Origin: Yuukianura sp. NJ FZ-2021
Taxonomy: Eukaryota
DNA: 64,000 nt
Assembly (NCBI GenBank): GCA_046563655.1
Contig: CM102287.1
Location: forward strand, 6,634,001 to 6,698,000
Direction: 5' to 3'
The first letter of the stretch is position 1; the number at the start of each line of letters is the position of its first letter. This document shows, piece after piece, positions 9,217-39,014 of the stretch. A program made the position numbers and the translations under genes. Below the pieces are notes generated by a model. The model did not search any database. It saw only the letters and a program-made list of their open reading frames with translations, and was not told where the DNA came from.

Positions 9217-10143
9217 TTAGCCATGAATCTGCGTAACTGTCATAGCAGAGCTGAGGTCAAGTTGGCGGCCCTCCTTCATCTAAACCGAAAAAAAATCGAT
9301 ATGATTTTTGTTAAACTTAAATTCGAAATAACCAAACTACATATTGATTTTAGTTAGCGTACGTTTTTGTAGTCATCGATCATCTCTTGAAACTTTTTGC
9401 AGTCTATGAGGGAAGAGACTAGCTCGTGTATGTCGCCGTCAATATCGTGCCGACTTTGAAGTTCTGACACGAATCCCTCCATGTCAAACTCCGGCAACAC
9501 TTTCTTTATCTCGTGCTCAATATAGTGGGCCACGACTTGTGAGTATTCCTTGAAGATCTCGAAAAGCACTGCTGGTGTTGGGGAGGCGGCCTCTCCAGAA
9601 AAATGCTGGTAGCAAGATTCCAGTTGACTGTTATGGAGGGTTTGAAATTCAGGACCTAAAAGGGACACCAAATCCTCATTTCCATACACCTTCCGAGTTA
9701 ATTTAATCGGAATTGAACGGCTAAGCTAAACTTACTCATTATGATTTCCTCGATGACACCCATGATCCGGTCAAAAGCAGTGGAATGATAGTGGGAGTAG
9801 ATGTCAAGCTCTTCCCAGTCGTTCTCGTTAGTATCCATGTTCATAGACGAAAGTTCAGCTGTGGCCGAGTTTACTTTTAAACAAACGACAAAGTGTTATA
9901 GTTTAGGTTCTAAATTGGTGAATTATAACTAATTGATCTAAATCTAATGATGCTGAGGGAATACGATACACCCATGCATGTCAAAAACGGTACGCAGTAC
10001 TCATAAAATAAGTGATTTGGAATAAAAACGAAATTACTAGTACCTTGAGCTTCCGTATCAATGTTTCTATTTCTTCTGTTTTGCGTGTCAATGTTTTCCA
10101 GCAACTGATTAGTATTCGGACGTGGTTGATTCGATTCTTCCAT
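9217..10143 (-). CDS. ARL2BP: ADP-ribosylation factor-like 2 binding protein (BART domain); 4 exons
   Basis: FDRIMGVIEEIIMSPEFQ...IFKEYSQVVAHYIE...LPEFDMEGFVSEL...GDIHELVSSLIDCKKFQEMIDDYKN|MKEGRQLDLSS matches the remembered ARL2BP pattern. The upstream exon (MEESNQP...EAQ) joins in phase 1. Confidence 0.85.
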
Positions 10144-10883
10144 TAAATTCACTGGAGGTGTAATTCCTTGTTACCAAATTCCTCAATTAGTTTTTTATTT
10201 AGCTGAAAACCAGTTAGAACTACGTCCCTTCTGAAAATTAATGTCCCCTGTGGCTGGCTGGTCTTGTTCTTGGGTGGCGTAGATACAGTAGTGGTCAAAA
10301 GTACAAAGGTATGGTAATGGTATGGTGTAAAGGGTTAGGTTAGGAGGAATTTCGCCTGTTTACAAACAAAAGTGAAACCAAACAGCATTGCGCAGAAGCA
10401 AAACAAATGTTTATGTAAACAAATTTCAAGTGGTCTTGCAGATAAGCACAACACAGCACACCTCCCTGCGAATTTCATTTTTGCAAAAATAAAAATAACC
10501 AAAAACTTATTACACTTTCGATGTGGGAAAATACTTTACTTTGCAAAACTTAGAACTGCTCGCTCCCAACTCATTGCCCTTTTGCCTTTTGTCCCTGAAA
10601 AACCATTTTCTATTTTTAATTATAATCTCTACGCGTATATTGTATAATGCTTTACTTGTAACATTACAAACCTGTTTGTTACATTCATGGAATTACTTAA
10701 CTATGCTAACTGTTACGTGGGAAGTTGACTAGCTATTATTACACCTATTTAGTAGAACAATTGAAGTGAAAAAAGATTTCTTAATGAAAAAGGCATGAAT
10801 TAAAATGATTAAAAGTTATTAAAAACGTAAATTGTAGGATAAAATTGTAAAATGGAGTATATTAAAGATCGACAAGACAGCTT

Positions 10884-13607
10884 TCATGCAACGGCAACCT
10901 TTGGTTCGAATTTCTCATTCCTTCCATGTCCTTTCTCTTGTAGATATTTGACCCTTGTTTCCAGTCTAAATTCTTCCAGTCGACTATTGGCTACCATCAG
11001 CTTCAGATTCAGTACTTGTTCCTAAATATATCAAATTATAATCAAATAACGAACATTTAGAAGACGCTTTAAACATTTTTAGCACTTGACATATTACGTT
11101 TAGCGTATCGTTTTCCAATTTGACAGCCTGCCATACATTCACGAGCTCGTCATCATCTAGCTGTTCCAAATCCGAACACGTATTTCTCCTGTTCACAAAA
11201 TTATTTCGTAAAATGCAGAGATATTAGATAAAAGTAATGATGTTTTTGTTATTCAGTTTACTTTGATTCCAAACTGATTTGTTGAATTTGACGAATGAGT
11301 TCCTCAATTTGCTCTTCCTCCTTCACAATTTCATCTTGCAACTGTTGGGTAAAGAGAATCAGAGCTTCATTCTCGGCAGCAATAAATTCGTCAGTTTTGA
11401 ATTCTGGTAGAGCAAACGGATCGAAAATTGACGGAGCAGTGACGAATTTTTTCCCGGGTTGGCCATGACTTTTGATGTCCTCGTCGGATCCTTTCTGACT
11501 AGTTGAGTCCGGACATACTTTTAATAAGACATAGTCGCCTTCATCTGGATCAACTTCGCTCCGTGGTGCTTCTGAATCAATTCTTTTTACACTTTCCTCA
11601 CCAGTTGATGAAGGTGGTTCTTCCGATTTTGACTTTGATGATTCTGGTGTCGCAGGAATATGCAGCAGTCGGCGACCTTTTTCAATATTTTCTCTTTTCC
11701 CGGTGGGATTGACTATGTTGTCAGCCTCATTGAAACTCGTGATCTCTTGTTCGTAAATGTCTTCGGGAGTTGGGTTCTCATTGCTGTTAACTTCTTTTGA
11801 ATGAACTTCAACTTTTACTTGAATAGTGTCCCGCCTGTCCAGTTCAACATCCGCCAATCGTATCGGTTGCCCAAGTTCACTTGCTGCAGTTACTTCCGGT
11901 GTCGATTCAATGATGTTCAGTATGATTTCTGAGTTCGGCATTTCCTGTTGTTCAGAAGTTACTGGTTGACTGATAGGTGCATGCACTTCCGCAGGGTTTA
12001 AAGTAGAGGTTGCAGCTGCAAGGTTCGAGGTTGCAATATTCGAAGCTTCTTTTGGGGTCAGCGTTATTGGCTGATTTGCTACCAGTGTTTTCTCTGGCAA
12101 GCATTCAGCACCAGTACTGTGAGAAATTGCTGCCTTTGGGGAAGGAGAGTTTTCGTTTGCAGCATCTGTAACGTTACATTTAACTTCAGTATGAGGTATC
12201 CCTACTCCTACAGGGTCGGATTCTGCTACTGTTGAGGTTGAAACAGAATTCGTTACAGCAGTAGCCGCGGCAGCCGTTGTTGAAGGAGGTGGCACAGAAA
12301 ATGATGCTGAAAGAGCGTTTATGGATCGGAGTTTCCTCTAGAAAAACAGCAAAAGCATAAAGTCGTGCTAAAATCAATCTAGGTTCATTCAGTAGTAACC
12401 TTCAACTGCGTCAGAGTCATCTGAAGTTCCCAGAGCTGGTCTTCCGCCTTCTTGCTGACTTTCTTTCCTGACTTGACTTGTGCATGTGCTTGTTCAAGCA
12501 TTGCCTCATATTTCTTTATTTCCTTCGAAATTAGTTCTGGGTCATCTGGTAAGTGAGAATTCGGACCATGTTGGGCCATATCCTGCCTGGATTGTAAAAA
12601 GATATCAATAAAAAACGGAATATTACAACAATTTTTTTTCCAAGCTCAGTCAAATTTGGGTAACATACCCTGAAGTGGAAGGTTCTTCGAAAGAAGTTTT
12701 GCCAATCTTTTTCAGTTTCAACTTTCCTTTTGAACTACTAGTGGCGCCATCTTCTTTCTTGGAATCCTTTTCTTTATGATCCTTTTTCTTCGACAGTAAA
12801 GGCACTGGTGCGTTGAGGAACACATTCAAGCCTTTCTTTTCGGATGCTGCTGTAGCAGTGACTGCAAGCCCATGGGCCTGAGGCTCATCCAGTACAACAC
12901 TGCTGCTGCTTGCATTTGAAACGCTGTGCTTTAATTTTTTCGAAGACTTCGATAAAACTCCAGCCGCTGCGTGCTTATACCCTTGCCCGTCAAATGGTCG
13001 CCGCTGTACAGGTACTTGTTCAGGAACAGCAACAGCTCCAGTACTATGGGTTTGAGGATCGTCTCGATTTCGCATAACTCTAGTATCTAACTCGTTACAT
13101 AATGACTTTGCCCGTTCCTTGTCGGCTGTTTTCGTTACCACTGCTGTTGCTGGTAACACTTCCTTTTCCTTCTTCTCTTTGTCCTTCTTCTTACTTGTTA
13201 ACTTGAAAGCCTTGATTTTGATACTTTTCCCAGGACTTCTGCGGTTTATAAAGAAGGAAAATGTAATCCATTCATTATCTTTATAATACTAGCATTGGCA
13301 TTAATTAAATTATAGGATAATGTGGATGTGATCCACGTTGAACTTCCGGTTAGAGCAATACTTTGTTTCAGCTTCGTCCTCATCAGGAGAGTCGTTCAGT
13401 GCTGCATATCCTTTATCCTTCTCTTTTTTGGAATCTTTCTTATCCTTCTTCTTCTTAGATTTATCCCAGTCGTCATCTGGTATAACCATGAGTATAAACA
13501 GTGATTTCTACAATGATTCTCAATTCGAGCTTACATTCATTTACGTCGGTGAGTGCCCTGGCAAGGCCAGGGAATTCTTTTGCGACATCAGGGCTATCAA
13601 AATCCAT
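10884..13607 (-). CDS. RALBP1: RalA-binding protein 1 (RLIP76/Rlip)-like, apparently lacking the RhoGAP domain
   Basis: N-terminus MDFDSPDVAKEFPGL, then a Lys-rich region with GYAALNDSPDED. Ral-binding domain LPDDPELISKEIKKYEAMLEQAHAQVKSG...AEDQLWELQMTLTQLKRKL. C-terminal coiled coils ENEALILFTQQLQDEIVKEEEQIEEL and LENDTLNEQV. Confidence 0.82.
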
Positions 13608-14054
13608 ACTCGGTTGTTGTGTGTAAGGATTCGGGAAGAGTCTGGAAATTAAATCAACAAACAATCAAATAATCAAAACATAGTTTAGGTATACATACAT
13701 TAGAAATTAGAAAATGTGATCTGATTTAAGAGAGTGAGCCGAGCCAACGAACAAACCATCCTAAGCACAACAACTTACGAGAGATTGGAAGGATTCAACG
13801 TCAACTTTTGTTGAAGCAGTGCAAACAAGACAAAACACAAGTGGGTCGAAGGTCAAACAACGGCTGGCTTCGAGTGTCAAGAACTTCAAACATCAAAATC
13901 AAGAATAAATTCTATACAGAAGATGAAGAACTTCTAAAAGAGGATTAAAAGTTTTGCTAAACTCGTCTGCAAAATTCTGAATTATCACAAGCAGCTGTTT
14001 TCTCGGTTGGCGTACGGTTCAACTAACGCCATTGAGTCAACCCGCGTAAACAAA

Positions 14055-14210
14055 CAGTGTCTGGCTACAATGAGTGGCTACACTGTGAATAACGTTGTTG
14101 CCACTTCAGGTCTCATAATAGATTAGTTTGAAGTAGCTGCATTAATTTCCACTCCGATATAGCCGCCTATTGTAGCTACACAAGATGGCCGGAGTGGCGA
14201 CACTACAAAA
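14055..14210. repeat. GTAGYC/GGCTAC motif cluster (copy 1 of a possible dispersed element)
   Basis: ctggctacaatgagtggctacac, ttgtagctacac, gtggcgacactaca. Confidence 0.4.
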
Positions 14211-14475
14211 AAACAATGACTATCGTTAATCCTTACAGGCAGATTCCTTCGGTAACAAGCATAACTAATCCTCGGAAACTTCGTACAAGTCTGAAACTAG
14301 AAACGCGTTAACGATTCGAATTATGATGATTTGGCAATTATGAAAGGGTTTAAAATAACAAGCTTTATTTAGATATTTATGATAATCTGATGAGCTTGGC
14401 GTATGTCATATTTAAGGTGGTACGGTACATGTTAAATTTAAGTATTTAATTCTAATTCAGTGGGGATTAGAATAA

Positions 14476-17400
14476 TTATTCCGATTCTTCTTCAGATTCC
14501 TCTGATTCCAGAAGTTCCTTAACTTTGTCTTGTTCCCTGGATTGTAAAAAGATCATTTCTCAAAAAAGCGTCAAAATGAGAAATTCCTTACAGCCAATAC
14601 GAGCATCGCGTTCGAGACGCTCATCTAAAAAAAATAACTTACGCGGTTGGTTCCTTTACATCGTTGATAATCATGTCTTCACTTTGGTCTTGCTCATCCT
14701 CGTCGGGTCTTTTATACCTTGACTTGGGCACATCGTCGTCATTAGCACTCCACCAGTTGTCATCATGCCCGGCGTCTAAGATGTAGAAACGGGGTACATA
14801 ACAAATTATTCGTTTCGTTTTAGTTGAGTGACAGCGTTAAAAGTGTATGTACAGGTAGCATGAATACTTTTTAAATGCCTTTCTCCTCAAGCATTTGTTG
14901 TCAAATTGAGGCGTAAAAACTGAAGCGAAATGCGAAACCGTGAGAATTTGAACAAGAAGCGAAAACAACCGTTCTCCCCTCATATCTTACATGGGGAACA
15001 TAAGGGAACGCTTCCCTCCAATTTTCTTCTGCTTCAAACGTTTCAAAAATGCTTGAAGCATAAAAGAATAATTCAAAAAATAAGAAATATTTACAAAAAA
15101 AAAAGACTTGTTCCACTCCGCATCCCCAAAAGCTGAAGCCAAGGATAGCGTCTGCTTCCGGAGCTTGGCAATCTGCCAATCGACGATCTTCCTCCTCGGT
15201 TGCATTACCTCATCTTGACTCGCAAGTTTAAATGACGTCGTCAATATGACGACACAGTATTTTGGCGAATGTTGGACCAATTGCGGACGTCTTGTCTCAC
15301 AGCCTTCTTGTCATCTAATCCGAAATTGTCAGCGTAGGAAAGCTTTTTACAAATTAATGCATCATATGAACACCAATAGTAAGCAAGCTGGCGTTCAGGA
15401 AAGCGATGTATTTGACTAAAAGTTAGTTTTATAATGTTATTATTTATAGATAGTTTTCACCAATAGCTTTAATATACAAGCCATTTTTGTTGCTGCAACT
15501 GTGAACACAATCGCCTGTTTTAGCGCTGCTTAACATAAGTGAATTAGCTTAACTGCTTAACCTCCCGCCAAATTTTAAACAAGCAATAAGCAGATAATTA
15601 TCGAAAGCGACAATCTCCATATCGTTGTTGAGCGTTTGACTTGAGCGAGTAGTTATAGCCGCTTTGAATTTTAGTGATTATTAAACGATATTACTGCAGC
15701 GTGTTTGATTTATAGCAAAGATGGTAGCAGTTAGGAAATGTCAATTAATTCAAGGTCGAGTTTTGTTCTTAACCTTTGACCTCCTCAGCTTCCTCAGCTC
15801 CGCCATTTAAAATATTATTCGTGTCTGGAGGTATTGTTTCCGCTTGCGGTTCGTCGTGCGCTTCTTCTGCGACGAAGTTGTTATTGGCAGCATTTTCAGC
15901 GTCAGCCTCTACGACTTGTTCGGGTTCTTCGTCACTCAACATTTTCGACGGTGGTGGCGGAGAACTGATAGCTTCAACGTCTGCGGGTTCGTCCCCGGAA
16001 GTGACATCGGCCTGACCATTTACCAAAATTTCATCTTCGATGCAACGTTGATCTGCTTCTGCTGTTGGTGACACGACCTCTTCTACGCGATTTTGATCTG
16101 TTCCTGCTGTTGGTGAAGCAACGTCTTCTTGCCGCGATTCCACTCTCGGCGGTGGTGACGCAGCAACCTCCGGTTCAATTTCAGCCACGGCTTCCTCGAA
16201 TATTTCCGGTTCAGGTTCCGGCTCCACGGGTTCAGGTGATGTTATAGCTTCGATTTCTGGCTCCGACTCTTGCACTTTTGGCGCTTCTTCAATCTGTTCT
16301 TCAACTTCCGGCTCAACAATGTTACTAGACTCGACAGGTTGTTCAAAAGTTTCTTCAACCACTGGTTCCGAAGCTGTTGGTTTCGATTCCAAGGCATCTT
16401 GAAAAACTTCTTCAACTTCAGGCTCAGGCGACGGTTCCTTGACTTTTTCCTCTGCAACAGAGGGATGCGGCGATATCCTTATTGTCTCCTTGACTTCCGG
16501 AAGAATAGGAGATTCTTCCTGTATGGACTTCCTGGAAATCTTAACCACAACTTCCCGCTCGGGTTCAGCCACGATCGACTTAACTTCTTCCGGAACTTCC
16601 ACGACAGATTTTCTTGGAGTCGGTAAGACATAACTTTGTTGCATTTCAGGTTTTCGGATGGCTTTTTCCGCCCTTGGCTTATAATCGACTTCGACATCAG
16701 CAGATCTCGCCACCCATTTAGATTCAACCTCCTAAAAAACACAAACACAAGGTGTGTCAATCTTGTCATAATTAATATTTCTCAAATGTTGTTTTTAGAA
16801 AATATGCTTCTTGGCTCTTACTTTCTTTGGCTTCTTCTCATCGCTGTCATCTTTTACCCCGAGGAGTGACTTCTTACTTTTATAAAGTGGTTGGTAAGTG
16901 ACAGCTATAAAATCAAAAATAGACGGAATTTTAGATAATCTTCTCAGAATTTTATATTCCAAAATTGTTCACTGTTGCATTAAAAAAAGTGATCAGAAAA
17001 GCTCACGTTTCTTGTAAAATGTTCCCAGCGTTGCAGCAACCCTCAGATTATTATAGAATGACCGAAAGTTAATAACATCTCGAATAGAAGTATCTTCTGG
17101 GACGTATCTCAGCTGTCGCTTGGAGATTGGCCGTCCACCAGCAAACGAAAGACATGCCAAATTCCCTTTTCCTGTAAAGATTTTGCACAGATTAACGAAG
17201 CTTTTTAGATTTCAGCTCCTGTTGTTCACGCATGATGGATTTTTATCTATACTTTTGTTATGCTAAAATTTTTACAACTAAAGAACTAGGACTGCTTAGT
17301 TTATTGCCATTGGCATCATTCGTTCTAGTTTCCCTAGTTGCTCCATGTTTTAGAAGAAAAAAAAACAGACCTGTGAGTGGTTTCCGGAGCGGTTCTTGGT

Positions 17401-28463: not shown

Positions 28464-30828
28464 TCAACTCAATTTTTTTACTCTGCCGGACCAAACTGGA
28501 AAGTTGCAAACTTTTTTAAATATTTCGAGAACAAAAACAGCAATGGAGACTGCCGAAGAAAACAAATAAATCATGAATGTCGTTACAGCTTTTGTTTCCA
28601 GACTCAGCGGCACTGGACTATTGGGATCCGAATGAACACGATTCAAACTTCGGATTTTCCTTCTCCAGAAGGCATCTTCTTTTATCACTGTTTTCCATTG
28701 TCTCCACCAATTGTAAATCCCTGATGCCAGGAGTCGGCGCATTTTCTTGTACAAAGCGTTGCCTGCTAGATGGGTAAAGACATAGCGTTCATGTGATGGA
28801 AAATGGCAATCCTTACCCTTCTTTGCCACAATTGAACCGTTAGTCCAAACCCACAAGTACTCAGCGATCCTGTCCAGGTTGCGATTGGTGTCGATGTAGC
28901 CGTTCCTATTTTAGGTTACGCTAGGTTACTAACTTGGACAAATTCAAATACAAAATATACAATTACTAGAGACCTAAACCTCACCTACGGCAAGTCGCCA
29001 GGTCGGCAACTAACTGATCATGGTCCAACGGTTGCCCGGCGGGGCTCACGAGGAAGTTGTATTTGTATCTAGGTAGGAACGGAAAAAGGCTGTATGCCCT
29101 TTGACTTCGTTGCTCATCGAAAAATGCAGAGTCACGCTCAGACCGATGCTGCAAAAAATCAGTGTTCGCGACCCAGTACCCCTCCGGGCATGACTCGCGC
29201 GGCGCAGGTTTCACGAATCCATGCGTACTGTTTCCTTTGCAAATGTTTGTATCAAATATTTGGTTGTACTCGCCAAACGTTAGAGATTCTTTTTGATTAA
29301 CTCCGAACTGGGGGTACAAATAAGACTGAATTCTGGAATAGAGGAATCTTTGCGGAGTGATGAAATAGAATGACGCCATCTCCGTGGTATTGTACCATGT
29401 TCCGTATTTTTCGAAAGGAGCTGTGGAGTATGTCGTAATCAAGCCCAGATAGGCGTTCGTCAAAACGACGCCTAAGAGAGACCAGAGGCCGAGGGTTAGG
29501 CGCACTAGCCGGGTCATACCTGGCAGTAACCGAGTAATGTTAATGGCGTCTTGATTCATACCAATTCCTATCAATGTTGTTGACACTGCTTCTGCTGACC
29601 TGTAGAAGATGTAGTGAATACTTGAAAGATTAATTTGCGACGGAATCTGAGCTAACGTTGGCGCCAAATTTGGAAGGGAGCTTTCAAAAATGTAAATGAA
29701 AACGTTAAAAATGGAAATGGCTAGGATGGTTCCTAGAGTGGCGTACCAGCACCACATGTCGTAAGGGAAACTGTAAAAAGTAAAACTCAAATTTTCGTCT
29801 ATGATGGTATCGCAGGTCAAAAAATTAAAATTCAATTCGCGCATGACGACAACCGAAAACTCGTTGTCAGGAACCGGAACTTCTTGCCGAACTCGAAGCC
29901 ATGCTTTAAGTGCGCCGTCGTAAGTCACGAGACCGTTAAGGTTGTAGACGCCCCTGTGATAATAGTATCCCAGGTCTTCAATGAGAAGATACATCAAACA
30001 AACTTCCAGGGAGTGCGCGGTAGAAGAGTTCAACGGGCTCCTGAATTTGTATGCATGATGTCGACTGATCAAATGGTAATCGCTAAAGAATCGTTCCATG
30101 ACAGTCTTGTTCTCGATGGGTGGGCGACATGGTAAATTTCGGCTAATATCAACAAATATGACCCCGAATTTTGTGGGGTCATTTATTGATAGGTGAACGA
30201 TCTTACGAAAATTTCTTAAACTCTGATTTTGGATTGACTCAATCAACAGGATCACTTTCTTTTCGGACGCTGTCGAAATACAATGTGTACCGAATTTAAG
30301 CAAAGAGGTTTTCATCGTAGTATGACCTTGACGGCTTTCAAGGTTAAAGAAAGTCAAATGTAAAAAAAAGTAGTGAGGGCCAAATACTTCGCGATAGTTG
30401 AAGGAAGGGAACTTGTGGGTCAAGTTCACGTTGTTGGAAATTAGGAAATAGTAATCATGTTGATCTCTCCATTTCTGACAAGGTAAATTTCCTAAGCACT
30501 TTCTGACGCTGAAGGTCGGTGGCTCAAATATGTATTGCATGATCTTTGTCGTTTCCGGAAAGAAAGCAAATGAAGCCTCACATGGGAAGATATGCTCACG
30601 TGCGTTAATTTTTCTCGACAGATGAATCACGGGATGTGCCGAGAAGTTGTCCATAAGAAAGGAATGTGTATTCGGCACAAAGACTATTATGTAACATTCT
30701 TTGAACGCTCTAACCCATGACCTCAAGTCAGTACGTAGGCTTAGCGCGTCTCTGTACGATATTATATCGGCCAAAGTTGTTTGTGTAGCTAGCAGAATAA
30801 TATAAATTGAAAATGTTTTGTATAACAT
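28464..30828 (-). CDS. Divergent ionotropic-receptor (IR)-like chemosensory membrane protein; exons 30828-28985 and 28905-28464
   Basis: Signal peptide, NFLTC...LSFTFYSFPYDMWCW plus TM1, LTLGLWSLLGVVLTNAYLGLITTYSTAP (TM2-like), MRRLLASGIYNWW, and PLSL...F plus last TM. The 78-nt intron keeps frame. Confidence 0.75.
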
Positions 30829-31531
30829 TTCGAAGTGTCAAAATAACTACGATGTTCACGCGCAAAAGATCACGGGCGATAGAACTCGAGCGTTTGACTC
30901 CATAGTGGATTCTAGACGCAGGGAAAAGCGCATAACCTCAAATGAGAAAAAGTCAACGGCCAAGTTTGACGATTAATAACCAAAACAAACAAAGTTTGTT
31001 TGCTTAGCCTATTTCATAACTTTTTCCTAAATAAGTTTTTCCCTGCAGAGAATTCCCAGTTCACTGGTACGTTGGTTTGGCACGATGGCAATTTTCTTTT
31101 GAATTTCAAAATTTTGAGCGATGAAAGCAGACAATTTTAGGTTAGCTTTGTTTAAACTAATATTTACCGTAACGAACAGATAAATATTTTATTCTTCGTG
31201 TTGTATGCCAAATAGTAACGAGAAATCTTAGAAATTTACGGCAATTCAATAAAAATTGAGGCGTCCTTTGTGGTAATTTGGAAAAAAAAACATTTTATTT
31301 AAATGTAAATTAAATAATTCCCGACAGGAGTCCTTCGCCCATTATTAGAGAAATAATGGTATGGTAAAAAAAAATTAGCCACGGGAACAGTTAGCTTTTA
31401 ACCAAAAGTATATTATGTCATGTTGTATTGTATGAATGGACCAGTAATTGTATGAAATTGAATTGTATGAATAAGCAGCAATAATGATTTACAATTTAGA
31501 GGATCGAATTTCCGTTAGTCATTTAATTTAC

Positions 31532-32362: not shown

Positions 32363-32780
32363 CTCTGGAACGGATTCTGACTGTGGGTAGAATATTTCAA
32401 AGCAGGGAACGCATAAAAGTTGAACTTTGAGTCGGGCTCTCAATTTCAATCTTGAAACGTAGTTTTCGCATTATCACTATCGAAATTAACTAACTTAACG
32501 TTGAACTTAACCATGTTAAGTTACGTGTTTTTCCTTCTTTTAGCTCAATGAGAAAAAACACGTGTCAGTGGAATAGTCAGACCCTAGTTTTTCTTGTTAA
32601 CCAAATGACCATACGGTACTGGGATGTTTTTTTGTCAGATCACACGGTTTTTTTTGTTGTTCCCAGGCTTATTAGCACGGGCAACTTCCTTTGATTTTGC
32701 GACTTCTTCAACGTTTCCCTTTCTGTTGCCATGAACGAACCTAACGACGCTGAATAGGATTTAATTTAAGAACTAAAACT

Positions 32781-33581
32781 ATGGCAGAGGACTCAACAGA
32801 AGCAGAGGGTTCGGTAGTTGTCGAAGTACACGAACGAAATCGTGAGCGTGATAGCGCAGGAGAAATGTCAGCGGAAGCCATACGTAAAGCTCGACGGGAT
32901 AAAATACTGCAGAATCGTGAAGAACGTCTTCAGAAAATCCTTGGACCTAGTAAGTATATTAAAATTGTAAGTATAGTAGTTCTAGATCCGTTGCATCACA
33001 ATCAGCAAAGTATCAATGAAAGTATAACTATATAATAGTAGTTTCGAACATAGTGATTCCGTACTCAATACTGAATGCCGTCTTGTTTCTTAATAGATAG
33101 TGATGCTGCAGCTCATCGAATCGTCGCTTCGACACATCCCGTTGACGATGATGATCCGGTACTTCCGGAGGAATTTCTCACTCTGGATTTCCTACAGAAA
33201 GCAAAAGCTCAGAAATTAAATCAGTTTGGTAATCAGCAAGGTCAGTTCAAGGCATCTACGACTGCAATTCCTCGTTGGAAGAACTATCGCATCTACTTGA
33301 TGTTATTGGGATCACTACTTCCGTTTTTCTGTAACAGTAACTTTATCATTTATTTTCTACTTTTCGAAATGCTAGTTTTGGCCACATATCGCAGAATTCC
33401 GGTTCCACCGTCTCCAGCCAACATGTTATTTACCCTGATTCTGTTAATGGGTCTAAAAGAACCAGATGTAAACCGCCTCAAAGTTTTCTTTAGAGTTACA
33501 ATTTGGATTTCAAAAGATATTTGTCTCTTTATGGTCTCAAGTATCCTTCCCCAAGCAGCATTTCATCTGTTATATTCATAA
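32781..33581 (+). CDS. CAMLG: CAML/GET2-like subunit of the ER tail-anchored protein insertase; 2 exons
   Basis: N-terminal AEAIRKARRDKILQNREERLQKILG (basic Get2/CAML motif) and C-terminal hydrophobic segments ending KDICLFMVSSIL. Confidence 0.72.
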
Positions 33582-37109: not shown

Positions 37110-39014
37110 TTAATCACCGGAATATATTCGTAGTTTTGTTGGTTGAAGTATTTCTACTGCGTCTGCGTCTCTGTGGAATGACAGAAGCAATATTTTCGTT
37201 GTCAGAAGTTCAATTACGAAGAAAGATGAGGACAGGAGGAGTAGAGCCGTCCACAGAATAAACGTCGGAGTGATTCTCCAGTGGGACATGTTGAAAGCCA
37301 TCGGTTGTTCCAGCTCTGTTCTGGCATTGGCTACTTTACGACGGTTCCGCCAGAGGGAAACATGGTTCTCATAGTCGTACAACCACGGAGCAATTCCAGA
37401 GTCAATGAGGCGCAGAACATTGGAATGTAGGGCGTCCTTACCACCTTTGATAAAGAAGTGTTTGAATTTGAGCGCCCTCTTGTCATTCCTCAGTCGATTA
37501 CATTTGATCTCTGGATAGGAATCGAGAGCGTAGAAGGATTCCGGGTCCAGCACAATGTCATCATCCGTCGTCAGGATTGCAACTTGACATTGTGCCAGTA
37601 GTCGAGTTCTCTCCTCCTGCGAACTGTGTTCAAACGAGGTCAAACTGTTGTCCAGTTGACCTTGAGAAAGTCCTTCGCTTTCAAAACTGTCTAACATAAC
37701 TCTGTACACAGGGTCAGAGGGGTCAAGTGTAGGGACTCCCTGGATCTTGTATCTTTTGTCAACAACGAGTTCTCGGAAGGTAGTGATTCTAATGGGCGGA
37801 GAGGGAATAGTCACATCACTGGAGAGGTTGCATTCGTAGATGGCGCAGAGGAGCATGAGCAGAACTGAGCTGTAGATCCGAATACCTGATGTGGTCAACA
37901 ATTTTTCCCTGTAGACCCAGTTGCTGCATTGAATGTGACCTTTGGCACAAACATCCAGCATCACTCCAACAAACATTAACAGAATGATAGACGTTGGGTC
38001 GAGTGCAAACGGGCGAACCCAGAACCAGAGGTCAAGGTCCATAAGGTCAACGTGTGCGACACAGTAGACGAGACTCGTGAAAATGTCACCACGGTATAGA
38101 ATTTGAGCCATGGAGACCAAGGCTGTAGAATTCCATGTACTGGAGGCTAATGGGTCGTCAAGTGAAGCAAGGCCAATGACCTCTGGGTCAAGTGCTTTTT
38201 TGAAGGAAGAGTGATAGTGGAGCGTAGCATTCAGTTTCCTAGCAACCGTTTCCATGATGGACACCACAGCTATTGGCTTACAAGTTGCCGCTCCCCTAGA
38301 ACTCCGCATTCTCGCATGGTAAGAACAATCACGTGCTGTTCTATCCGTCAGTTCCGGATAGCGTCGAGCCACTACTTGCAGTATCCCGCCATACCAATCA
38401 GAATAATTCGGAAGTGTTTGGATACCTACGTGAGTCCAAAGTTCTTCTGAACGCAAACTACTGGACACTTCCGATTGGTTAACAGTAAACGACACAACTT
38501 GGCGTGACCTACAGAAGGCACATCGTTCATACACTGCTTGGAGTCCAGAAAATGTTGAATCCAGTTGAACAGCACGAAACGATCCACTGACAAACGGAAG
38601 TTGCGAAAAATCGGAGTCTGCGCAGTTGACATTCGAAGGAACGACAAAAGCAAAGGAAGAAGTTTCTTTGAAGGGAGATAGGACACTGATCGTTTGGAAA
38701 TCGAAACAAGACTTTGCTACAATCACATTGTGGCGACAAATGACACGATTCAGTTGAAACTTAACAAAGTCAGTTTGGTCAACGTCAGAAGCATTTGAGC
38801 GGCCAAAGATCAATGACCTGCTTAATACAATCTTGGCACCATGTAGATCCTGGCTAGCCAGCATTAGATGGTCAACTATGTTAGTCAATTCGTATTCAAG
38901 CGCAGCAGAATATGAAACGAGGATGTCGTAACTTTGGCAAGTGCGACTTTGTATACCCAAAATTTGGTAGAACAGACAAAGTATCAAACACAGGAAATAC
39001 TTTGGAGAATACAT
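37110..39014 (-). CDS. Intronless divergent ionotropic-receptor (IR)-like membrane protein, 634 aa
   Basis: Signal peptide, SLVYC...LDLWFWVRPF plus TM, LLCAIYECNLSSDVTIPSPPIRITTFREL, VLRLIDSGIAPW, and a C-terminal TM. Confidence 0.72.
   Translation of the reverse strand: MYSPKYFLCLILCLFYQILGIQSRTCQSYDILVSYSAALEYELTNIVDHLMLASQDLHGAKIVLSRSLIFGRSNASDVDQTDFVKFQLNRVICRHNVIVAKSCFDFQTISVLSPFKETSSFAFVVPSNVNCADSDFSQLPFVSGSFRAVQLDSTFSGLQAVYERCAFCRSRQVVSFTVNQSEVSSSLRSEELWTHVGIQTLPNYSDWYGGILQVVARRYPELTDRTARDCSYHARMRSSRGAATCKPIAVVSIMETVARKLNATLHYHSSFKKALDPEVIGLASLDDPLASSTWNSTALVSMAQILYRGDIFTSLVYCVAHVDLMDLDLWFWVRPFALDPTSIILLMFVGVMLDVCAKGHIQCSNWVYREKLLTTSGIRIYSSVLLMLLCAIYECNLSSDVTIPSPPIRITTFRELVVDKRYKIQGVPTLDPSDPVYRVMLDSFESEGLSQGQLDNSLTSFEHSSQEERTRLLAQCQVAILTTDDDIVLDPESFYALDSYPEIKCNRLRNDKRALKFKHFFIKGGKDALHSNVLRLIDSGIAPWLYDYENHVSLWRNRRKVANARTELEQPMAFNMSHWRITPTFILWTALLLLSSSFFVIELLTTKILLLSFHRDADAVEILQPTKLRIYSGD

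Follow-up and report, generated by a model that had tools for sequence, protein, structure and literature searches.

Can a RalBP1 protein (RLIP76, Rlip) be without its RhoGAP domain and still be a RalBP1? Both the GAP and the Ral-binding domain (RBD) are described as conserved within metazoans in a review (PMC8124665, section 2), and the RhoGAP of RLIP76 is reported to be catalytically very weak and its purpose unsettled (PMC3852207, PMC8124665). The question is raised by a gene of the springtail Yuukianura sp. NJ FZ-2021, located in a 64,000-nt stretch of contig CM102287.1 (here called the window), which had been predicted from its sequence to encode a RalBP1 homologue with the entire RhoGAP domain missing. 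In the literature searched, with subscription papers mostly outside it, no paper on a springtail or GAP-less RalBP1 was found; PMC4432964 concerns RalGAP, not RalBP1.

The gene is the RalBP1/Rlip orthologue of this species. It lies on the minus strand and has seven predicted coding exons with an intact ORF of 749 aa. The six introns, all GT-AG, measure 58, 123, 82, 62, 73, and 76 nt, 474 nt in sum. The parts of the gene, in window coordinates, are:

13535..13607, minus strand: exon 1, coding, with the conserved Rlip N-terminal motif (aa 1-15) at 13607-13563
13362..13476, minus strand: exon 2, coding, Lys/Asp-rich, with a GYAAL motif at 13411-13397
12669..13238, minus strand: exon 3, coding, 570 nt, phase 2 at both ends
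12797..12826, minus strand: N-x-F-L-N-A-P-[AV]-P motif, in 6/6 aligned springtail-type exon-3 regions and also in P0082
12707..12730, minus strand: K-[VG]-K-L-K-L motif, in 6/6 aligned springtail-type exon-3 regions
12587..12668, minus strand: intron 3, the junction at which the GAP is missing, 82 nt, GT-AG, phase 2
12400..12586, minus strand: exon 4, coding, a short linker without a YVPP-type motif, then the Ral-binding helical hairpin from 12552
11262..12337, minus strand: exon 5, coding, completing RBD helix 2 (to 12308), followed by a low-complexity stretch of about 290 aa and, from 11422, the first part of the conserved C-terminal helical region
11098..11188, minus strand: exon 6, coding, C-terminal coiled-coil region
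10884..11021, minus strand: exon 7, coding, last part of the C-terminal coiled coil, with the stop codon

The in-frame intron originally proposed at 12668-12587 is confirmed as GT..AG, 82 nt and phase 2, joining the two peptides that had been quoted, and the low-complexity stretch put at about 300 aa after the RBD measures about 290 aa (aa 326-620) and is poorly conserved. Intron 3 has a tandem acceptor (window 12582-12587), with another AG 4 nt further downstream, use of which would shift the frame.

The identity of the protein rests first on exon 4. In a search of PDB sequences with this exon, the best four of nine matches are RalBP1 (best E 0.002). Its AlphaFold model is a two-helix hairpin, and the top two Foldseek matches are the RLIP76 RBD (rmsd 1.1 Å, E 0.6), the 62-aa hairpin having no Foldseek match at E ≤ 0.001. 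The ESM Atlas returned only unrelated matches below 0.8 and a homologue search with exon 4 alone returned none, while 65 of the 66 matches in the homologue library are Rlip-like. Against PF20924, the Ral-binding family, the window exon alone scores 12.3 bits, below the cut-off of 24.5, whereas all three named springtail orthologues score above it. A Pfam scan had been expected to give a Ral-binding match and no PF00620; the latter part holds, and the former fails for the window exon. Taken together, exon 4 is the RBD of RalBP1/RLIP76, a two-helix coiled coil homologous to RLIP76 393-446.

The flanking modules are also present. The N-terminal 75 residues are 40-49% identical to the N-termini of three GAP-bearing Rlip proteins and 31% identical to a fourth. 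The motif of exon 1 matches two metagenomic loci (L038, L039) and insect Rlip N-termini, and the GYAAL motif of exon 2 is common to insect and crustacean-type Rlip; the window protein thus has the basic N-terminal region of Rlip with both of these motifs. The C-terminal region shares 38-53% identity with the other springtail proteins and aligns weakly with the GAP-bearing ones; in the Folsomia model, helices of high confidence span residues 692-734 and 748-800. The N-terminal motif, the RBD and the coiled coils, all said in the original prediction to remain, are each found by sequence comparison or in models. In its N-terminal motifs, RBD hairpin, Ral hot spots and coiled coil the protein resembles canonical RalBP1 (human; Photinus P0035, Timema P0055, and Clastoptera P0061).

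The RhoGAP domain, in contrast to these modules of canonical RalBP1, gives no signal at the locus by Pfam, custom HMM or profile comparison, which bears out the central claim of the prediction. Pfam finds no RhoGAP in any of the six window ORFs that cover the exons, and none of the at least 35 PF00620 matches in the 98.7-Mb genome (41 best candidates scored) lies inside the window. Exon 3, at the position expected for the RhoGAP, is a charged low-complexity region with no GAP signal. Neither the protein nor the minus strand of 10000-15500 contains an FGxxL or GIYR-type motif; FGxxL has two matches in that interval, both on the plus strand, so the statement that the gene has no FGxxL or EGIYR motif is upheld. 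The argument that the intron is too short for a hidden domain extends to all introns, since their 474 nt compare with about 560 nt for the 186-aa Rlip GAP, too little to hide it. Compared with canonical RalBP1 of human and insects, the springtail protein is without the RhoGAP and hence without equivalents of Arg232 and Lys268. As the RhoGAP, its arginine finger and its secondary lysine are absent, the protein is an orthologue by descent and not a member under a two-domain definition. It is not a RhoGAP family protein: the PF00620 fold with its catalytic arginine is absent.

That this absence reflects an assembly collapse, a mis-prediction or a pseudogene is hardly credible. The splice join at 12669/12586 is a predicted one, with the second AG just past the acceptor, and this would be the opening for such an error. 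Against it, positions 12247-13738 are covered by a single 1498-nt contig of another study (X5), in which 65 letters of intron 3 are exchanged for 75, and one 210-nt contig of X4 crosses intron 3 without a break. No RNA run is listed as containing the gene; all four compared runs are DNA contigs, and X1, X2, and X4 are one sample that may be the source of the assembly. An independent DNA contig thus crosses the junction, and the assembly collapse named as a possible refutation is not borne out. The ORF is intact, and 15 of the 25 listed coding differences are synonymous versus 22% expected (p 5e-5; mutation bias uncorrected); eleven of the twelve listed indels are intronic, the twelfth being an in-frame 6-mer. 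Behind these counts are the 40 best-supported differences out of 251, and 12 indels out of 67. From these sequence differences the gene looks to be under constraint, and the same layout recurs in other springtails, as described below. A decoy paralogue, rivalling a canonical, GAP-bearing Rlip encoded at another locus, is very improbable, if a shade less so than an artefact. Exon 4 and two GAP-bearing Rlip proteins, used as queries, each find this gene as the one RBD locus among the best candidates and no second Rlip, and a genome search with PF20924 gives one unrelated match below the cut-off. Other GAP matches to insect and crustacean-type Rlip in the genome are weak, with E values of about 1e-9 to 1e-10 at best; from their flanks, we take these loci to be other RhoGAP subfamilies. 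With a custom Rlip-GAP HMM, the best 30 ORFs from 34 RhoGAP loci score no higher than 0.70 bits per column, as against 1.0-1.55 for five longer, hand-picked true Rlip fragments. This test is not airtight, because short true Rlip GAP fragments (P0062 and P0064, about 0.6; the divergent P0020, 0.55-0.77) score as low as other RhoGAPs, and a gene in tiny exons could escape a search in which only the best candidates were scored. The check for a second, GAP-containing RLIP thus yields none among the best genome candidates, and the suggestion of a decoy, there being no canonical copy found to compete with, becomes unlikely.

The GAP-less layout is not confined to Yuukianura. The closest full-length relatives (3/3 NCBI matches) are RalBP1 of Orchesella, Folsomia, and Allacma, which represent two orders of Collembola. 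All three (Orchesella cincta ODM93594.1, Folsomia candida XP_021950844.1, Allacma fusca CAG7821472.1) have PF20924 without PF00620. These entries are automatic annotations, and the GAP-less architecture is already visible in them as public records. The window protein shares their architecture and motifs and is 62-69% identical over the RBD exon; it differs in having Met for Arg434, and its basic motif ahead of intron 3 has diverged further. The GAP-less junction also occurs in three of the four metagenomic loci, with a phase-2 intron of 81, 96, and 99 nt in L037, L038, and L039, respectively. The comparison with related species that had been proposed therefore gives the same layout in three named springtails and three metagenomic loci. 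The fourth locus is a chance match; among the chance matches rejected are L040, P0005, and L032.

Outside springtails the picture is different. PF00620 is present in 14 of the 24 scanned library relatives, among them all five of the non-springtail proteins in which the N-terminus is preserved, and the named PF00620-bearing relatives are insects. The other ten comprise three springtail-type exons, six ORFs whose start coincides with the RBD exon or lies shortly before it, and a chance match. Many non-springtail GAP-less ORFs begin at the RBD exon and are for that reason uninformative on the presence of the GAP. None of the matches was identified as dipluran or proturan. In a tree of 69 rows, the ten springtail-type RBDs form one clade (support 100/98) on a long stem branch of 1.09 changes per column; the tree is built on 49 columns only, and three of the ten springtail-type rows come from named species. 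Thirteen rows were left out of it: P0005 as a chance match, P0003 and P0020 with a repeated RBD or GAP, P0077, a Ral, P0082, which has no RBD, and the near-duplicates P0067, P0069-P0072, P0076, P0004, and P0078; P0012 and P0065 are also missing. P0003 is an Rlip fragment with two RBD repeats in tandem. Given the shared architecture and the single clade, a single loss early in collembolan history is the most parsimonious account: the GAP and the linker would have been lost once, before the split of Symphypleona and Entomobryomorpha.

What stands in place of the GAP? Four springtail-type proteins have 257-281 aa between the GYAAL-type motif and the tryptophan of the RBD, versus 314-378 aa in six GAP-bearing ones. 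The RhoGAP of about 190 aa is missing as claimed, but the region is shorter by only about 60 aa, not by 190, which implies that the GAP was replaced by other sequence and not simply cut out. The replacement amounts to about 125 extra residues, with K, E, D, and S making up 42-65%; hydrophobic residues account for 13-21% of the springtail-type exon-3 regions versus 39-42% of GAPs. On six such regions the Rlip-GAP HMM does no better than on shuffles (85-300 of 300 as high). Profile-profile comparison with the GAP gives a probability of 0.2%, on a GAP segment other than FLRELP, and 5 of 100 column shuffles score as high. Nearly all of residues 17-273 of the Folsomia AlphaFold model are at pLDDT <50, with GAP rows included, although this is weak evidence, as the alignment has only eight sequences. 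The charged sequence is probably disordered. Relative to canonical RalBP1, then, the springtail protein has a longer charged N-terminal region, which carries FLNAP, and the low-complexity stretch of about 290 aa after the RBD.

Two short motifs, FLNAP and KLKL, are conserved in 6/6 of the otherwise unalignable exon-3 regions, and they point to different histories. The KLKL motif resembles a basic motif just before the GAP in P0033, P0041, and P0055, which would suggest a deletion, although the likeness is not significant (hhalign E 0.32; BLAST E 1.6). MAFFT, on the other hand, aligns FLNAP onto the FLRELP block of the GAP in collinear order, which would suggest decay in place, and this match is likewise not significant. 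Many insect ORF fragments show intron-like sequence up to an R-Y-V-P-P that is placed equally far from the RBD, which makes intron 3 probably, on sequence comparison, the old intron preceding the RBD exon. Deletion of the GAP-coding exons upstream of this old phase-2 intron, together with expansion of the charged N-terminal region, is slightly favoured over decay in place.

The RBD itself has kept its Ral face and changed the face turned to the GAP (positions in human numbering, from the PDB sequence alignment). L409, H413, W430, T437, and K440 are reported as hot spots for both RalA and RalB (PMC8124665). Residues L409, H413, L429, W430, Q433, and T437 are invariant in the springtail-type rows (helix-1 columns were computed for nine of ten rows and the tenth was read directly), and K440 is also kept. 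R434, a RalA contact, is Met in the window protein only and Arg in the other springtail-type rows. Changes shared by the springtail clade near the Ral face are Q405 to Tyr, L412 to Ala or Thr, and Q417 to Lys. In the human didomain the linker makes packing contacts with F407/L408, I435, and A438, and for RalB the isolated RBD is as tight a binder as the GAP-RBD didomain (PMC3852207). The structured GAP-RBD linker of canonical RalBP1, YVPP-type in invertebrates, is missing from the springtail proteins: it is found in 50 of 52 other rows versus none of the nine springtail-type rows with linker sequence. Position I435 is Thr or Asn in 10/10 springtail-type rows, while 58 of the other 59 rows carry one of the four commonest residues there, all hydrophobic. 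At position 407, Ser is found in 57 of the 59 others, and the springtail-type rows vary; L408 and position 438 are essentially unchanged.

The partners of RalBP1 are encoded in the same genome. It has two Ral genes, both with an intact effector region, and a Reps-like gene whose EH domain best matches REPS1/POB1 and whose last exon is coiled-coil-like; co-occurrence with Ral and Reps is thus another likeness to canonical RalBP1. One Ral (L042, G000:C5:2912154) is canonical, with 203 aa and a CAAX-like end. The other (L041, G000:C3:1121199) is divergent, 121 of 175 residues being identical to L042, and its second intron was modelled with a GC donor. Intersectin-like EH exons occur twice on G000:C5, near 3.16 Mb and 3.30 Mb (L044, L045, L050, L051), with identical scores of the main matches; this is either a recent duplication or a haplotype assembled twice.

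RalBP1 and its partners have been studied in other animals. In mouse adipocytes, exocytosis depended on the RBD and the Reps1-binding C-terminus of Ralbp1 but was rescued in full by a GAP-dead version, and Ralbp1 was proposed to stabilise RalA-GTP (PMC9946360). In the fly, it is reported that Rlip knockdown is lethal at 25 C and that Rlip and Reps are binding partners of Minibrain, with which they may form a ternary complex (PMC11540318). The springtail protein resembles the GAP-dead R232A/K268A Ralbp1 of the Reps1-Ralbp1-RalA module in keeping the RBD and the C-terminus while having no GAP to act; the difference is that two catalytic residues were engineered there (PMC9946360), whereas here the whole GAP fold is gone by natural evolution.

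We consider it likely, though well short of certain, that springtail RalBP1 is a GAP-independent scaffold for Ral/Reps trafficking. The reading starts from the architecture, its conservation and the partner genes, and to these it would add binding, stabilisation of Ral-GTP and a lack of Rac/Cdc42 regulation. The helical hairpin of the RBD would bind Ral-GTP, as the retained hot-spot residues suggest, and the C-terminal coiled coil would bind Reps by analogy with the mammalian and fly module. The long basic N-terminal region, probably disordered, may contact membrane or endocytic adaptors through short motifs. Ral would then be held in its GTP state and linked to exo- and endocytosis, as reported for mammalian Ralbp1, and springtail RalBP1 itself would not act on Rac or Cdc42. 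Of the original proposal of a GAP-less Ral adaptor or decoy uncoupled from Rac/Cdc42, the adaptor appears to survive, with the GAP absent and the Ral residues and the Ral and Reps genes kept, and the decoy does not.

The scaffold reading has to be weighed against others that assign the RBD or the GAP replacement a new role. It is unlikely, but deserves some weight, that the RBD switched partner or lost useful affinity for Ral when the GAP was lost, leaving a protein that is mainly a Reps or other scaffold. The long stem branch, the changes at 405, 412, and 417, the Met at R434 and the sub-cut-off Pfam score of the window exon all point this way, and the second, divergent Ral would fit a shift in partner. 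They are offset by the retention of all five hot spots for both Ral proteins, by the modelled hairpin, which superimposes on the Ral-bound RBD at 1.1 Å, and by the intact effector region of both Ral genes. Slightly less probable still is a link to Rho in trans, by which FLNAP or another short motif would recruit a separate RhoGAP or some other Rho regulator. FLNAP may in that case be a repurposed remnant of FLRELP, which would mean that the GAP decayed in place. The presence of FLNAP in all six aligned regions amid unalignable sequence, its collinear placement on FLRELP by MAFFT and the region being only about 60 aa shorter speak for a link of this kind; the HMM scores no better than shuffles, the profile-profile probability and the low hydrophobic content of the region speak against it. 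A broader version, doubtful though rather more plausible than either, is that in the only RalBP1 of springtails the GAP was swapped for a conserved docking motif (FLNAP), possibly derived from the GAP core block, next to a fast-evolving RBD hairpin. If true, the output of Ral would have been rewired from Rac/Cdc42 to another partner across a whole hexapod class.

Under the preferred reading of a GAP-independent Ral/Reps scaffold, at least two springtail orders kept the gene, the Ral surface and the coiled coil and dropped the GAP, which suggests that the indispensable core of RalBP1 is the Ral/Reps scaffold. Springtails would then be a natural test of the purpose of the weak GAP, and could separate GAP-dependent from GAP-independent functions. 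The comparison also points to FLNAP as a new conserved short motif.

The surroundings of the gene offer some further observations. An ARL2-binding BART gene (PF11527) lies at window 9354-9895 on the minus strand, about 1 kb downstream of the Rlip stop. Two long uninterrupted ORFs with hydrophobic segments, 28981-30837 and 37110-39014, both on the minus strand, encode 618 and 634 aa; they have no Pfam match at E 0.01 and may be divergent ionotropic receptors, which they resemble. A GET2/CAML-like gene stands head-to-head upstream of Rlip in L038 (4244-3237) and L039 (601-1), and its homologue in the window lies 19 kb upstream of Rlip, at about 32780-33580 on the plus strand.
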